This document shows positions 53,989 through 58,701 of a stretch of 62,786 nucleotides of DNA, piece after piece; the first letter of the stretch is position 1, and each line of letters begins with the position of its first letter. Both the position numbers and the translations under genes were made by a program. The notes under the pieces are model-generated. The model did no database searches and had not been told where the DNA came from. It was given only the letters and a program-made list of their open reading frames with translations. Source of the DNA: a virus; the IMG/VR virus record IMGVR_UViG_3300036975_000025, positions 1 to 62,786 of that record. One strand, given 5' to 3'.

Positions 53989-54708
53989 ATGAAAACTGTA
54001 TTTACATCATGCATTATTGCCCTTCTCACGCTCCAATTCGGTCCCTATCTCATAGACCGTGTTCGTATCCATCGGAGTGAACCACAGGACAATGGCATGA
54101 TTTACCCATCTTCCAATCTCACCTTTAGTTGTGACTATCGGGAGCCCATTGACCTTGTGTTCATCGGAGATTCCGTGACCTACGGGGTAGGGGTATCCGA
54201 ACATCTGACGTACCCGGCTTTGATTGCCCAGGCGTTGGGTGCCTCCTACCTCAACCTCTCCGTCCCCGGTTATGACTGCCTGGATTGTCTGGAATCCCTA
54301 AATGCCAACAACTGGCGCAGCCATACGCCGGAAAAAATCATCTACGGTTACTGTATCAACGATTTTTCTACTTACAGCCGGGAGTACATCGAGGGGGTGG
54401 GGCTGGTACGGCATACCATGCGGCTTTCGGACTTTCTCTATAAGGCATTCTGCGGGGGCGTAGAGGGGATTCTATCTAGGGAGATTAAGGAGTGGAAAGA
54501 GAAGGCCCCGCTCTACATGGTCCTCATCCCGCCCCGCACGACATGTAAGGGATGGAGGGCGCGTAGCCTCGCCATGGCACGAAAATTGGCCGATTTGGAA
54601 CTCACCCTTACCGACGATTGCTATTTGGATGAATACCACCTGAATGAGATGGGCCACCAGGAAGCGGCTCGACAAATATTAGAAAACGGGGGATGGAATG
54701 GGCAGTAA
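53989..54708 (+). CDS. SGNH/GDSL hydrolase with N-terminal membrane anchor
   Basis: Block I FIGDSVTYG, block III YGYCINDF, block V DEYHLNEMGH. AAGGAG RBS before MKTVFTSCIIALLTL. Confidence 0.75.
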   Translation: MKTVFTSCIIALLTLQFGPYLIDRVRIHRSEPQDNGMIYPSSNLTFSCDYREPIDLVFIGDSVTYGVGVSEHLTYPALIAQALGASYLNLSVPGYDCLDCLESLNANNWRSHTPEKIIYGYCINDFSTYSREYIEGVGLVRHTMRLSDFLYKAFCGGVEGILSREIKEWKEKAPLYMVLIPPRTTCKGWRARSLAMARKLADLELTLTDDCYLDEYHLNEMGHQEAARQILENGGWNGQ

Positions 54709-55330
54709 TCACTACTTGGAAAATGACAGAGTTAAAGTAAAAGAATACTTTAAATTTATCGGCAATATCATTCAGCCCAAACCGAACGATACCATATTAG
54801 ACGTAGGGTGTGCTACAGGGGATCTTATCAAATACCTAAAAACACTTTACCCTGATTGTCTATTCGTGGGCATGGATATTAACGAGGAATTCCTGAACAA
54901 AGCAGCCAAACGAATGCCCGATGAAGAGTGGATTATAGGGGATGTGCAACGAGATGTAATCCCTTTTGCCGATATTGCAATCATAGCAGGAATCCATAAT
55001 CCTTTCGATAACACCCGTTGGTTCTATCAAATGCTGCAAGTGGAACGGTCTTTCATTTTCGGAGTATGGAACAAGTACGGTTTCGATATCGCCATCAAAT
55101 GGAGGGGGAAGGAACGATCAGGTGAGTGGTATGTATGGAGCAAAGAAAAGGCTGAAAACTTTGTGTCTACCCGCGGGAAGTTCTGGAAATGGCACGATTG
55201 GGAAATGCCCCTGCCTATGGTCCCGAAAGAGGACTTAGTGAGGGCGTGGACGATTCAAACGCAGAATGGAAACCTTGTCACCAATGGTTTTGGAATGATT
55301 CAGGAGTTTTCACTTTTGGAGGTGTGGTGA
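54698..55330 (+). CDS. Class I SAM-dependent methyltransferase
   Basis: ILDVGCATGDLIKYL (motif I) and FVGMDINEEF (motif II). Confidence 0.75.
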   Translation: MGSNHYLENDRVKVKEYFKFIGNIIQPKPNDTILDVGCATGDLIKYLKTLYPDCLFVGMDINEEFLNKAAKRMPDEEWIIGDVQRDVIPFADIAIIAGIHNPFDNTRWFYQMLQVERSFIFGVWNKYGFDIAIKWRGKERSGEWYVWSKEKAENFVSTRGKFWKWHDWEMPLPMVPKEDLVRAWTIQTQNGNLVTNGFGMIQEFSLLEVW

Positions 55331-55923
55331 TGCGTATCGTTTTTATGGGGGCCAGTACATTTTCAAGAATTGCCCTCGCCCATCTTAAAACGATGAAGGA
55401 CGTGGAGATCCCGCTTGTTGTTGGAAGGTATTCTGTGCCGGGGGATCGGGTGGATATCACTTGGATGGCTCCACAGGAGGCTAGTTATTGGGACCCTCAG
55501 TTACCCCCCGATATCGACGCCGATATCGACTACGTTTTCGCGTTTGGCTGGAATAAAATAATCCACATCGAAAATTACAGCGTCCCCATCTTCGGGTTCC
55601 ATCCCTCCCTGCTTCCCCGTGGCCGTGGACCCGCACCCGTCATCAACGGATGGCTCGACCACCGGGAGTGGTGCGGATCTACTTTCTTTCAACTCACCGA
55701 CAAGTTAGATGCGGGACCGATCCTTAGTCAACGGCATGTGCAGTGTTTCCACTCTTGGAGTGTAATCGAGCTTTACACGGCCATCTGCCAAACCGCCCTA
55801 GATCAAATCAGCGGGTTCATTCCGTTCTTGGAGAATCACAGTTACACCCTCTTTTCACAGGATGAATCACGGGCAACCTATTATCCCAAAAGGGATAAGG
55901 ACGAATGGATACCCTATTGGTAA
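55330..55923 (+). CDS. Formyltransferase (Fmt/ArnA N-domain family)
   Basis: MRIVFMGAS... and the signature GFHPSLLPRGRGPAPV; the TGATG-coupled start is an internal Met of the track ORF. Confidence 0.75.
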   Translation: MRIVFMGASTFSRIALAHLKTMKDVEIPLVVGRYSVPGDRVDITWMAPQEASYWDPQLPPDIDADIDYVFAFGWNKIIHIENYSVPIFGFHPSLLPRGRGPAPVINGWLDHREWCGSTFFQLTDKLDAGPILSQRHVQCFHSWSVIELYTAICQTALDQISGFIPFLENHSYTLFSQDESRATYYPKRDKDEWIPYW

Positions 55924-55938
55924 AAGGAGGATAAAACA

Positions 55939-56714: not shown

Positions 56715-56715
56715 C

Positions 56716-57315
56716 ATGGATACCTTATTGGTAGTCGCACCCCACGCAGATGATGAAGTGCTTGGCTGCGGCGGAACCCTAGCTCGGTGGCCTGGAGGAA
56801 AGCACATTCTCATTGTAACGCATGAGCAACGCAACGAGCAGCAGACACGCAGGGTGCGAAACCTTCTCCATGCTGACTACCATCTTGCCACGTTTCCCGA
56901 TGCCGGGTTGGAGCCAAAGCACATCCCCGGCATTGCAGAAACCATTGCCACGATTATCCACCAGCACGCGCCCTCCACGGTTCTCTGTCCGTTTCTGTAC
57001 GATGTGCATTCTGACCATCGAGTGGTTGCCGAGGCATGTCTATCCATCAAACCATTCAGATTCCCTGGAGTAAAACGTGTCCTTTCCTATGAGGTGCCGA
57101 GCCAGACGGACCTTGGGATACAGGCGTTTCGGCCCACGGTGTTCGTGGACATTACCAAACATCTCCTTGCCAAGCTGGAAGCGTGGGCCGTGTACCACGG
57201 CGAAGTCAACGGGTCAAGGGATGCCGGAATCATTGAAAGCCTTGCCAAGTACAGGGGAGGGACTGCGGCAATGAATTATGCGGAAGCCTTCGAGCTTATA
57301 CGAGAGGTGGAATAA
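56716..57315 (+). CDS. PIG-L/LmbE-family N-acetylglucosaminyl deacetylase
   Basis: LLVVAPHADDEVLGCGGTLAR ... HSDH is the PIG-L signature. Confidence 0.8.
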   Translation: MDTLLVVAPHADDEVLGCGGTLARWPGGKHILIVTHEQRNEQQTRRVRNLLHADYHLATFPDAGLEPKHIPGIAETIATIIHQHAPSTVLCPFLYDVHSDHRVVAEACLSIKPFRFPGVKRVLSYEVPSQTDLGIQAFRPTVFVDITKHLLAKLEAWAVYHGEVNGSRDAGIIESLAKYRGGTAAMNYAEAFELIREVE

Positions 57316-57779
57316 TGAAGACACCATACTGCATTCTGTTAACCGGCGAACCCAACTGTGGGAAAAGTACTCTTGCCTACCATCTATTACAAGGGCACCT
57401 TAGAAATTGTTTAGTCATTGACGGGGATGCACACAGGCAGGCGCAGTTCCTTGGCAGGCAATTAGGGTTCTCCAAAAAAGACATCATGGAGAACAACGAG
57501 CATGTAATCAAATTGGCGCAGTTTGCCCAAGAACAGGACTTCAACGTCTTGATTCCTCAGATCGCCCCGTATAAAGCGCAACGGGAAGCCATGCGGGAAC
57601 GCCTAATCAACTTTACGGAGGTTTTTCTGTCGGCCAGTAAATCGGCCAGGAGAGGTCGGCCTAACTTCAAAGACACAGAACTACGCTACGAATTTGGCAA
57701 CCCTGACTTGATTGTGTACACGGACTCGTACCCTATCGCTGTCTGCGTAGAACAGATCATGGAGTTTCTGAATGAATAA
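57315..57779 (+). CDS. cysC: Adenylyl-sulfate (APS) kinase-like
   Basis: ILLTGEPNCGKSTLA (P-loop), VIDGDAHRQ, LGFSKKDIMENNEHV, and APYKAQREAMRERL..FTEVF are collinear with CysC. Confidence 0.7.
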   Translation: MKTPYCILLTGEPNCGKSTLAYHLLQGHLRNCLVIDGDAHRQAQFLGRQLGFSKKDIMENNEHVIKLAQFAQEQDFNVLIPQIAPYKAQREAMRERLINFTEVFLSASKSARRGRPNFKDTELRYEFGNPDLIVYTDSYPIAVCVEQIMEFLNE

Positions 57780-58701
57780 GATCATCGCTTCAGGCCCAAA
57801 AAAATCAGGATGCAGCCTGTTTCTCCGGTTGCTGGATTCCCATCCTCAAGTTTCAGTTGTCACAGATGAGAGTTACCTACTTGAACATGTCTACAAATAT
57901 ATGGACAATGAAGAATTGTTCAAGGATATATTCGCCTGTTTTGACACCGATGAACTTCTCTGTTCTATTCGGGAACGGGAAATGATTGAGCCTATTGACG
58001 GGATATACAAGCAACACATTCCATTTGAGTACAAACAACGCATCCGGTTTTGCCCTAAAACATTCAGGAGATATTTAAAAAGCCTCATATTTTACCAGCA
58101 TTACACAGTTAGAAACATCGTGGAGCATATCCTGTACTCATGGATGGCGGCAAGAGGGAGAAGCAGAAATACTGTTGCTATTGCAAGTGGAGACTTTGGC
58201 CGGAGTTTGATAGTGGCGGATAAATATCTCGAAAACGTAATCCCCGTTTTATATATCAGAAACCCGTACTATGCTCTGAATTCTTTGAAAAAAGCAAGGA
58301 CGCTGCCCGTCAGCAAAGGAAAAGAGTTACACCCTGTGAATTTTATGGAAGTCATTTTGGAATATAAGTTTCTAATGGACAACATCAATAGTTTTCCCCG
58401 AAACACTCATATCATCAAATTTGAAGACATGGTTGTGGATACTGGAAAAACCATGAGGGCATTCTGTAAAATAGCTGGGATTGATTACCATAAAACCATT
58501 ACCAAGCCCACCATAGACGGGGAACCTCATTGGGGAACAAGCTCGTTTGACCTGAAATCAAAGGGAATTCACCCAGAAGCCGTTCATCGAAAAATCACGG
58601 AACTTTCCAGCATGGAAATCGCGTTAATCACAAAACACCTGAAGCCATTTTTGGATAGATTTGGATATTATTATGAACCAACAGAACCTGCGGCACAATG
58701 A
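57772..58701 (+). CDS. PAPS-dependent sulfotransferase
   Basis: A 5'-PSB-like ASGPKKSGCSLF and a 3'-PB-like LYIRNPYYALNS; 309 aa. Confidence 0.65.
   Translation: MNKIIASGPKKSGCSLFLRLLDSHPQVSVVTDESYLLEHVYKYMDNEELFKDIFACFDTDELLCSIREREMIEPIDGIYKQHIPFEYKQRIRFCPKTFRRYLKSLIFYQHYTVRNIVEHILYSWMAARGRSRNTVAIASGDFGRSLIVADKYLENVIPVLYIRNPYYALNSLKKARTLPVSKGKELHPVNFMEVILEYKFLMDNINSFPRNTHIIKFEDMVVDTGKTMRAFCKIAGIDYHKTITKPTIDGEPHWGTSSFDLKSKGIHPEAVHRKITELSSMEIALITKHLKPFLDRFGYYYEPTEPAAQ

Follow-up and report, generated by a model that had tools for sequence, protein, structure and literature searches.

An eight-gene phage island predicted to tailor legionaminic-type nonulosonic acids of its host

Many bacteria and archaea cap their flagellins, S-layers, capsules and lipopolysaccharide (LPS) with nonulosonic acids (NulOs), sugars that often serve as phage receptors and immune epitopes. 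Here we analyze an island at positions 53989-58701 of IMG/VR virus record IMGVR_UViG_3300036975_000025, whose 62,786 nucleotides (nt) constitute the window of this study. On balance, we favor the reading that this island, judged from its sequence, is a portable NulO-tailoring cassette put together from pieces of bacterial legionaminic-type gene clusters and carried by a temperate, circularly permuted 62.7-kb phage. Eight + strand open reading frames (ORFs) fill the island, all of them open and overlapping or nearly touching. This layout had been described in an initial annotation and is borne out by the ORFs, their junctions and two gene callers. All eight of its family assignments hold in profile searches, with the SGNH hydrolase scoring below its gathering threshold, the formyltransferase and kinase being atypical and the sulfotransferase call being settled by a structural model. 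The genes, which involve adenosine 5'-phosphosulfate (APS) and 3'-phosphoadenosine 5'-phosphosulfate (PAPS), are as follows.

53989..54708 (+), membrane-anchored SGNH/GDSL-like hydrolase, 239 amino acids (aa), from a Lipase_GDSL_2 match and conserved blocks
54698..55330 (+), class I S-adenosylmethionine (SAM)-dependent methyltransferase (MT), 210 aa, from Methyltransf_25 and related profiles
55327..55923 (+), formyltransferase-fold protein (FT), N-terminal domain only, 198 aa, from Formyl_trans_N
55939..56277 (+), small membrane protein (TM112), 112 aa, with two transmembrane (TM)-like segments by hydropathy analysis; G+C (GC) content 38%
56274..56714 (+), relic of a NeuC/LegG-type hydrolysing 2-epimerase, 146 aa, from a TIGR03568 match
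56677..57315 (+), PIG-L/LmbE zinc deacetylase, 212 aa (199 aa from a start at 56716), from the PIG-L profile
57315..57779 (+), short APS-kinase-like P-loop kinase, 154 aa, presumed PAPS supplier, from the APS_kinase profile
57772..58701 (+), PAPS-type sulfotransferase (ST), 309 aa, from motifs, an AlphaFold2 model and fold matches

The junctions measure, in order, -11, -4, +15, -4, -38, -1 and -8 nt; if PIG-L begins at 56716 instead, the -38 junction between the NeuC relic and PIG-L changes to +1. The same eight genes were called by two independent gene callers on two independent contigs of ~62.7 kb, which come from unrelated datasets (JGI 3300042731 and SRA run SRR12150545). The island proteins are identical between both contigs except for one FT residue. 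Since the contigs begin at different points of the genome, the window is a circularly permuted complete genome.

Three island genes, for FT, the NeuC relic and PIG-L, have counterparts that are coupled in bacterial NulO clusters. FT scores 41.3 bits against Formyl_trans_N (PF00551; gathering 26.1) and contains HPSLLPRGRG, with the SLLPxxRG signature. PIG-L scores 56.3 bits against a Pfam gathering threshold of 28.2, and its metal-site motifs, VVAPHADDEVLGCGG (APHADDE) and HSDH, are intact when aligned to TT1542. In all four FT loci examined, the genes encode a dehydratase, an aminotransferase, a PglD-like acetyltransferase, NeuB, NeuC, FT, PIG-L, a CBS-NTP-transferase and a CMP-NulO synthetase. 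On the annotation of these genes, that order is a legionaminic-acid-type (Leg-type) pathway with a coupled NeuC-FT-PIG-L triad. The four triads (loci L009 and L045-L047) come from an Omnitrophota metagenome-assembled genome (MAG; L009), the isolate Marinisporobacter balticus (GCA_004345705.1) and two metagenome contigs, one of which was fetched with a protein that NCBI labels Ca. Methylomirabilis. Phage FT is 24-30% identical to the FT of these triads and phage PIG-L, over its full length, is 31-36% identical to their FT-coupled PIG-L. FT, the NeuC relic and PIG-L each match all four (best E-values 2.7e-20, 7e-15 and 1.6e-38, respectively). The relic scores 37.9 bits against Epimerase_2 and matches NeuC genes next to FT/PIG-L or ST genes in more than 12 loci. 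Five phage genes, namely MT, NeuC, FT, PIG-L and ST, have their homologues together in a single Omnitrophota Leg cluster, L009. The NeuC stump lying between phage FT and PIG-L is best read as the scar of capture from such a Leg-type cluster.

The ST is borderline by Pfam (Sulfotransfer_3, 26.9 bits against a gathering threshold of 27). An AlphaFold model built on 71 homologues (pLDDT 94.8, pTM 0.92) settled the call because it matches PAPS sulfotransferases, which make up all of its top 33 Foldseek matches in the PDB. Among these are TPST1/2 (E 1.6e-8, TM-score about 0.6), the CurM sulfotransferase domain, heparan 3-OSTs and mycobacterial Stf. The 5'-phosphosulfate-binding (5'-PSB) loop reads GPKKSGCS (residues 8-15) and the 3'-phosphate-binding (3'-PB) motif spans R163...S171; across the 71 homologues G13, R163 and P165 are invariant and S12 is near-invariant. 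By these motifs and the modeled fold, the island ST is a PAPS-dependent sulfotransferase, for which synteny suggests an acceptor.

Word-index searches returned almost nothing for ST and FT, and HMMER and profile searches were needed to find their relatives. A full HMMER search of 1.84 billion representatives yielded 2298 relatives of the ST. We fetched ST loci, 11 from named genomes and 23 from metagenomes, and scored them by tblastn with the Pfam-annotated proteins of two reference loci. Of the 19 independent loci that span 9 kb or more, 18 have NeuB, NeuC and/or CMP-NulO synthetase beside the ST. A PtmE-like NTP-transferase, a PglD-like acetyltransferase and a WbuX/HisH/HisF amidotransferase set are usually present too. 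The loci belong to Parcubacteria, Halobacteriovorax, Desulfobacteraceae, Desulfovibrionaceae, Omnitrophota and Alphaproteobacteria. The closest bacterial ST (E 6e-72), in a Halobacteriovorax MAG (L002), is encoded directly after a canonical APS kinase and flanked by CMP-NulO synthetase and NeuB/NeuC genes; the L002 cluster comprises NeuB in two copies, NeuC, a CMP-NulO synthetase, NTP-transferases, the WbuX/HisH/HisF set and a pyruvate-kinase/ATP-sulfurylase fusion. The initial annotation had proposed a generic amino-sugar acceptor of the O-antigen, capsule or Nod-factor type; this did not hold up, as the context points to a legionaminic-type NulO pathway. No sequence relative of the ST was found in GenBank phages or IMG/VR. 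Sulfotransferase-fold proteins occur in other viral genomes and are uncharacterised.

The kinase gene overlaps the ST gene by 8 nt. Its product scores 59.5 bits against Pfam APS_kinase (PF01583; gathering 21.1), its 20 PDB sequence matches are all APS kinases, and the P-loop GEPNCGKST, DGDxxR (IDGDAHR) and LGFS are present in the PDB alignments. With these matches for the kinase and the PAPS sulfotransferase fold for the ST, neither enzyme was reassigned to an unrelated P-loop family. The pairing of the two genes as activated-sulfate supply and transfer, also claimed initially, recurs elsewhere as a conserved two-gene module, with the phage kinase an atypical partner (see below). On a 1.6-kb contig (L044), an ST 41% identical to that of the phage is followed by a kinase of 161 aa, which is 57% identical to the phage kinase in a gap-free alignment and has the same deletion of the lid segment. 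This shared deletion indicates that the short kinase is a maintained form, and the recurrence of kinase and ST at 57% and 41% identity argues for a maintained, presumably functional pair. Short or canonical APS kinases adjoin ST relatives in five independent loci (L002, L008, L033, L041-43 and L044), and in other ST loci a canonical CysC takes the place of the kinase.

A similar kinase was seen in two GenBank phage records only, OQ572406.1 (Pseudomonas phage Y4, 26224-26730) and MT838634.1 (305-802), both unannotated there, at about 29% identity (E 5e-7 and 1e-9, respectively). A role in DNA hypermodification, in which the P-loop kinase would act on DNA, was considered as well. We discarded it, since the genes are not accompanied by enzymes that modify nucleotides or DNA and the relatives of all modules reside in glycan clusters.

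The fold matches of the ST bear on another possibility, namely that kinase and ST act on a non-glycan target, such as a protein or peptide tyrosine (in the manner of TPST or RaxST), a small molecule or a lipid, or that the kinase phosphorylates a sugar. Tyrosylprotein sulfotransferases are indeed the best fold matches, we take the LLDSHP...DES segment of the ST to resemble the TPST active-site region, and the kinase is atypical. However, carbohydrate sulfotransferases (3-OSTs, Stf) match the ST as well, and its genomic context is overwhelmingly that of glycan or NulO biosynthesis. The exclusive PDB matching of the kinase to APS kinases, and its replacement by canonical CysC elsewhere, also speak for sulfate activation. 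We therefore consider a non-glycan target very improbable.

What the phage lacks helps to place the predicted NulO-tailoring cassette within the host's metabolism. A search of the window found no homologue of NeuB, of NeuC beyond the relic, of CMP-NulO synthetase or of a putative NulO transferase of ~490 aa (described below), and none of the island proteins has a Pfam glycosyltransferase domain. Since the core pathway is absent from the phage, the cassette would have to work on intermediates of a host that already makes such a sugar. The cassette is mostly cytoplasmic, with seven of its eight proteins counted as having no TM segment (the two TM-like segments of TM112 being listed separately), and the cofactors of these enzyme families, SAM, formyl-tetrahydrofolate, ATP/APS and PAPS, are cytoplasmic as well. 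Together with the missing core pathway, this suggests that the cassette diverts nucleotide-sugar intermediates of the host rather than a finished glycan. Thus, the earlier proposal that the island modifies rather than builds stands as regards tailoring, there being no synthase, cytidylyltransferase or transferase in the window; its pre-existing glycan is replaced by host nucleotide-sugar intermediates.

From the families, folds and active-site motifs observed, the synteny of the modules in NulO clusters and the absence of core genes, we infer the substrates, order of steps, sulfation site, expression timing and phage benefit as follows. PIG-L would take one N-acetyl group off a nucleotide-linked NulO or its hexose precursor, and the Gly-variant FT would re-acylate the freed amine with formyl, giving a 5-N-formyl-legionaminic-type sugar. 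The SAM methyltransferase would add a methyl group. The short APS-kinase-like enzyme would turn host APS into PAPS, with which the ST would O-sulfate the NulO or a sugar carrying it. Host transferases would then put the rewritten sugar on a surface glycan (S-layer, flagellin, LPS or capsule). After export, the SGNH hydrolase probably removes O-acyl groups from this glycan outside the cytoplasm. Overall, the charge and epitope of a typical phage-receptor sugar would change, and hence superinfection exclusion or serotype conversion would follow.

The position of the sulfate could be different. In an unlikely but credible variant of the same pathway, the terminal NulO is still remodeled by PIG-L and FT, but sulfate goes onto a neighboring residue of a lipid-linked oligosaccharide, for instance a hexuronic acid. 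Such an arrangement has a model in Halorubrum, whose glycan has a sulfated or phosphorylated glucuronic acid under formyl-Leg (PMC6137143). Moreover, the ST gene is usually placed toward the end of the cluster concerned with glycan assembly, next to a gene for a ~490-aa protein with a weak match to a Tannerella transferase family, and the glycan cluster L026 has a member of the ST family but shows no NulO genes. Yet in several loci the ST directly follows CMP-NulO synthetase, in the sugar-nucleotide part of the cluster, and no ST family member has a known acceptor glycan. We keep the NulO itself as the preferred acceptor.

The ~490-aa protein has no Pfam domain and almost always adjoins the ST. 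It is encoded at 10950-12434(-) in L002, and homologues occur in L004, L006-L008, L010, L011, L013, L014, L023, L029 and L032-L040. Its weak match (E 0.0014) is to the BFO_1060 family, which includes the transferase of Tannerella forsythia for pseudaminic/legionaminic acid derivatives, and it may thus be a NulO transferase. The fusion of a pyruvate-kinase barrel, PUA_2 and ATP sulfurylase is found at 20612-20939 in L002 and, as a protein of 734 aa, at 2395-4599 in L026; it may be a dedicated APS supply coupled to phosphoenolpyruvate or ATP metabolism. In the Omnitrophota locus L009 (12304-14918), a second, distantly related sulfotransferase is followed by a B12-binding radical SAM enzyme. Radical SAM/B12 enzymes are also present in L026, L045 and L047, which suggests further, undescribed NulO modifications.

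The remaining island genes add less specific information. MT scores above gathering with Methyltransf_25 (36 bits), 12, 31 and 11, and weakly matches TIGR03587, a pseudaminic-acid-associated methylase (E 3.7e-5). Methyltransferases flank ST relatives in several further loci. The SGNH-like protein scores 27.3 bits against Lipase_GDSL_2 (E 5.9e-6; gathering 32.9) and 21.9 against another family with a threshold of 23.6, and gave no useful PDB sequence match. Blocks I (GDS at residue 60, in IGDSV), III (IND at residue 122, in CINDF) and V (DEYH at residue 214) are present. With one TM-like segment at residues 4-22, it is likely the only extracytoplasmic enzyme of the island. TM112 had no significant family match in profile searches.

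Turning to composition, the island has a GC content of 46.6%, compared to 51.8% for the rest of the window, and falls in the lowest 0.2% of windows of the same length. The AT-richness noted initially is thus real, and four counts of G+C given then for 60-nt lines (17, 22, 28 and 32) are exact. The low value stems from MT, TM112, the NeuC relic and ST (38-44%), and SGNH, FT and PIG-L are at the level of the phage (51-53%). Phage hallmark genes in the window encode a terminase, a portal, a ClpP-like head protease, a DnaB helicase and an exonuclease. The island is preceded by the recombination genes ERF and YqaJ and followed by two small genes and then an integrase. Two context features stand outside the cassette.

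59798..60973 (+), tyrosine integrase, from Phage_int_SAM_4 and XerA-like matches
60997..61028 (-), tRNA 3'-end fragment of 32 nt (T arm, acceptor and CCA), GTCGGGGAGTTCGAGTCTCCCCTTCGGCACCA

ARAGORN reported a 77-nt tRNA-Cys(GCA) at 60997-61074 (-), of which only the last 32 nt are tRNA-like, and an Rfam scan found no tRNA at gathering score in this interval. The call is probably an over-call and the fragment at 60997-61028 probably the attP core, so that the phage probably integrates into a tRNA gene. The acceptor end of the fragment presumably resembles that of tRNA-Leu; no tRNA gene for comparison with attP was present in the fetched bacterial loci. Recombination genes, island and int form one continuous + strand array, in which 7 nt lie between the island and the gene that precedes it. 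A consensus scan for promoters and terminators at the island found none above shuffled background, the consensus being one that may not match the promoter type of the host, and a repeat search at the island borders gave nothing above chance. The initial annotation had placed the island in the classical position for lysogenic conversion. An integrase and a tRNA-fragment attP are indeed nearby; the position is only suggestive because the island is packed in a long + strand operon with no promoter or terminator above background. With such a layout, the island could serve early in lytic growth instead of acting in lysogenic conversion.

Several observations weigh against the NulO-tailoring reading, one being this lack of a promoter signal. 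The catalytic Asn-His-Asp triad of formyltransferases is incomplete in FT: in its motif, FGFHPSLLPRGRG, His and Asp are kept, and Gly occupies the position of the catalytic Asn (FGFHPSLLP), where all characterised formyltransferases have Asn. FT is also without the C-terminal domain that its bacterial relatives keep. The kinase reaches 56 bits with NCBIfam apsK, compared to a cut-off of 138.7, and compared to human PAPSS1 it has a deletion of the 13-residue lid segment (RDxKGLYK region); from our reading of the alignment, it presumably lacks an APS-binding Arg as well. Given the lost Asn, C-terminal domain and lid, FT and kinase activity is a prediction. The NeuC stump shows decay of at least some of the captured DNA. 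NeuC/LegG enzymes have two domains and ~365-390 aa, and the relic covers only positions 66-171 of 365 in TIGR03568 NeuC_NnaA (E 4.5e-14). Its C-terminal domain is absent, and no other NeuC remnant was found in any frame. In a PDB alignment, ...vpvahlhggeit... of 5zlr, whose ...hlhggeit... segment we take to be the catalytic HGGE motif, reads ...ipvvrv...entt... in the relic, which is probably not catalytic. The link of MT to NulO clusters is weak, at 23.6% identity (E 1e-10) to the methyltransferase that opens the Omnitrophota Leg cluster L009, and none of the fetched NulO loci encodes a homologue of SGNH or TM112. L026, the exception among the 19 loci, is a glycan cluster with a GT2, a methyltransferase, a NodB-type deacetylase and an ATP sulfurylase, and has no NulO genes within 10 kb of the ST relative; the ST family is therefore not strictly NulO-bound. 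Finally, the proposal presupposes a host that produces NulOs, and we found no description of a sulfated bacterial NulO in the literature searched; the sulfate may instead go on a neighboring sugar.

Taken together, such losses could mean that imprecise recombination brought a piece of a host NulO cluster into the phage, where it now decays as cargo, with some or all of its genes useless to the phage. The stump of NeuC, the truncated FT, the lidless kinase, the mosaic GC content and the absence of a dedicated promoter or terminator in the consensus scan would all fit. On the other hand, none of the eight ORFs is interrupted and all are translationally coupled, PIG-L, SGNH and ST retain their catalytic motifs, and the copies in the two metagenomes differ in a single FT residue. 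Both short forms are maintained, as each has an independent homologue of the same shortened architecture, at 61% identity for FT and, as described above, 57% for the kinase. The lost Asn is likewise a subfamily trait rather than a lesion, given that a profile search found Gly at this position in 121 of the 122 best members of the FT family. We regard decay as improbable and retain NulO tailoring as the preferred function.

The FT family itself is large and consists of ~295-aa proteins usually annotated as methionyl-tRNA formyltransferase. Hundreds of these proteins (P0154-P0272 among them) carry IGSHP(A/S)LLP, with Gly for Asn. Where examined, their genes lie between those for NeuC and PIG-L in Leg-type clusters, and this looks like systematic mis-annotation of a NulO-tailoring family. 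Another FT match, P0153, from an oxalyl-/formyl-CoA-type locus, was set aside because it is weak (E 9e-5) and has Cys, not Gly, at the motif.

The chemistry proposed for PIG-L and FT has been described in cellular organisms. In Halorubrum sp. PV6, the S-layer N-glycan and the VP4 spike of virus HRPV-1 are capped with 5-N-formyl-legionaminic acid, and a predicted formyltransferase gene (HrrPV6_1050) directly follows legG (PMC6137143). In Ca. Kuenenia stuttgartiensis, CMP-NulOs were detected that have one amine free, another formylated and a methylation of +14 Da; they were traced to a Leg-type cluster encoding both a deacetylase and a formyltransferase, and the steps were concluded to take place on the nucleotide sugar (preprint, bioRxiv 10.64898/2026.04.20.719630). 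These two systems offer a plausible, partly documented product class for PIG-L and FT, and possibly MT. As in L009 and L045-L047, they place a deacetylase and FT pair beside legG/neuC, a likeness in enzyme pair and gene position. Unlike the island, they are chromosomal and have a full pathway, whereas the phage has an FT without its C-terminal domain, a NeuC relic and an added PAPS/ST pair.

Closer in setting are prophage genes that re-tailor host NulOs. EpaA and EpaB of Acinetobacter baumannii prophages convert pseudaminic acid (Pse) to 8-epi-pseudaminic acid, and the modified sugar appears in the surface polysaccharide (PMC12053666). As with the island, a temperate Caudoviricetes phage at a tRNA gene carries a few NulO-derived genes with no core pathway and re-tailors the NulO of its host. 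In contrast, EpaA/EpaB are two genes (a cytidylyltransferase/aldo-keto reductase and a short-chain dehydrogenase) that carry out epimerisation and have no sequence relationship to the island, whose eight genes are predicted to deacetylate, formylate, methylate and sulfate. NeuO of prophage CUS-3 acts on the polysialic acid of Escherichia coli K1. Phage O-acetyltransferases 4-O-acetylate Leg/Pse side chains of the A. baumannii K46 and K5 capsules (PMC6586298). Here too a phage gene modifies a NulO of a host surface glycan; unlike the island, these are single acetyl-CoA enzymes with no cofactor-supply gene, N-acyl exchange or sulfation. Phage-borne tailoring of host NulOs, by O-acetylation and 8-epimerisation, is thus established. 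The initial annotation knew of no seroconverting phage with a sulfation/formylation package; both sulfation and formylation are new for a phage, although NulO tailoring as such has precedents.

Two further comparisons concern enzyme content and gene position. Rhizobial Nod-factor synthesis uses the sulfotransferase NodH, NodP/NodQ (ATP sulfurylase/APS kinase), the deacetylase NodB and the methyltransferase NodS. Like the proposed cassette, this system deacetylates an amino sugar, re-decorates the amine, methylates and O-sulfates with a dedicated supply of activated sulfate. It differs in that NodB belongs to CE4 rather than PIG-L, the acceptor is a chitooligosaccharide and the genes are plasmid-borne or chromosomal; the phage has no ATP sulfurylase. 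Classical seroconversion genes, gtrABC and Oac of temperate Shigella and Salmonella phages, are accessory genes near int/attP that alter a host surface glycan, as proposed here. Their products work on O-antigen that is already assembled, at the membrane or past it, and the genes have transcription of their own in lysogens, whereas the island is mostly cytoplasmic, would act on precursors and is only a candidate for lysogenic expression.

Overall, the observations of the initial annotation are confirmed and its interpretation is partly supported. What appears new is a multi-enzyme package for N-acyl exchange, methylation and sulfation together with a PAPS-supply enzyme, and the sulfated Leg-type sugars in many phyla that the ST family implies; sulfation would be new chemistry for bacterial NulOs. 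The ST family spans Omnitrophota, Parcubacteria, Desulfobacterota, Bdellovibrionota and Alphaproteobacteria. We put forward more tentatively the broader proposal that this family marks widespread O-sulfated legionaminic-type NulOs and that the phage carries the first viral kit that makes PAPS and rewrites CMP-NulOs by N-formyl, methyl and sulfate groups. If so, phage surface conversion would widen past acetylation, glucosylation and epimerisation to N-acyl exchange and sulfation, giving a virus control over the charge and identity of a sialic-acid-like receptor sugar, and phages would import whole tailoring sub-pathways, including an enzyme for cofactor supply. A large unannotated ST family and the mislabelled Gly-variant FT family would then be NulO-tailoring enzymes. 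Sulfated and formylated Leg derivatives are concrete targets for glycochemistry that current filters in untargeted mass spectrometry of CMP-sugars can miss; the SugarBase workflow, for example, excludes compositions with both N and S (bioRxiv 10.64898/2026.04.20.719630).

The phage lineage is very poorly sampled. Apart from one stretch of 72 nt that lies outside the island, the phage has no DNA match to GenBank phages. No phage match was found for the integrase, and the portal best matches Methanosarcina virus MetMV, with 25% identity. A 279-aa protein flanking the island has three IMG/VR relatives, none of which shares synteny. In a Pfam scan, none of ten virion and tail proteins showed a sialidase or esterase domain pointing to a NulO receptor. 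A tail-region ORF of 2079 aa (9717-15956, -), like several large virion ORFs, has no Pfam or PHROG match, and two SU10-adaptor-like proteins at 22804-24340 are the only structural clue for these virion ORFs.

Three sequence elements were noted elsewhere in the window. A GC-rich inverted repeat at 52447-52518 (20-nt arms, 85% complementary, 32-nt spacer) lies in the 66 nt that separate the genes of the recombination module from the block of genes extending through the island to int; that the repeat divides transcription units is speculation. A direct repeat of 41 nt (83% identical) at 61462-61502 and 61943-61983 ends in a ribosome-binding site and start codon and precedes two small + strand genes just past attP, and may be a duplicated regulatory or leader element. 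Among the late and structural genes, a full-length group I intron at 26656-26907 (-; Rfam RF00028, 93.8 bits against a gathering threshold of 50, E 7e-23) overlaps the 3' part of the ORF at 26697-27566(-).

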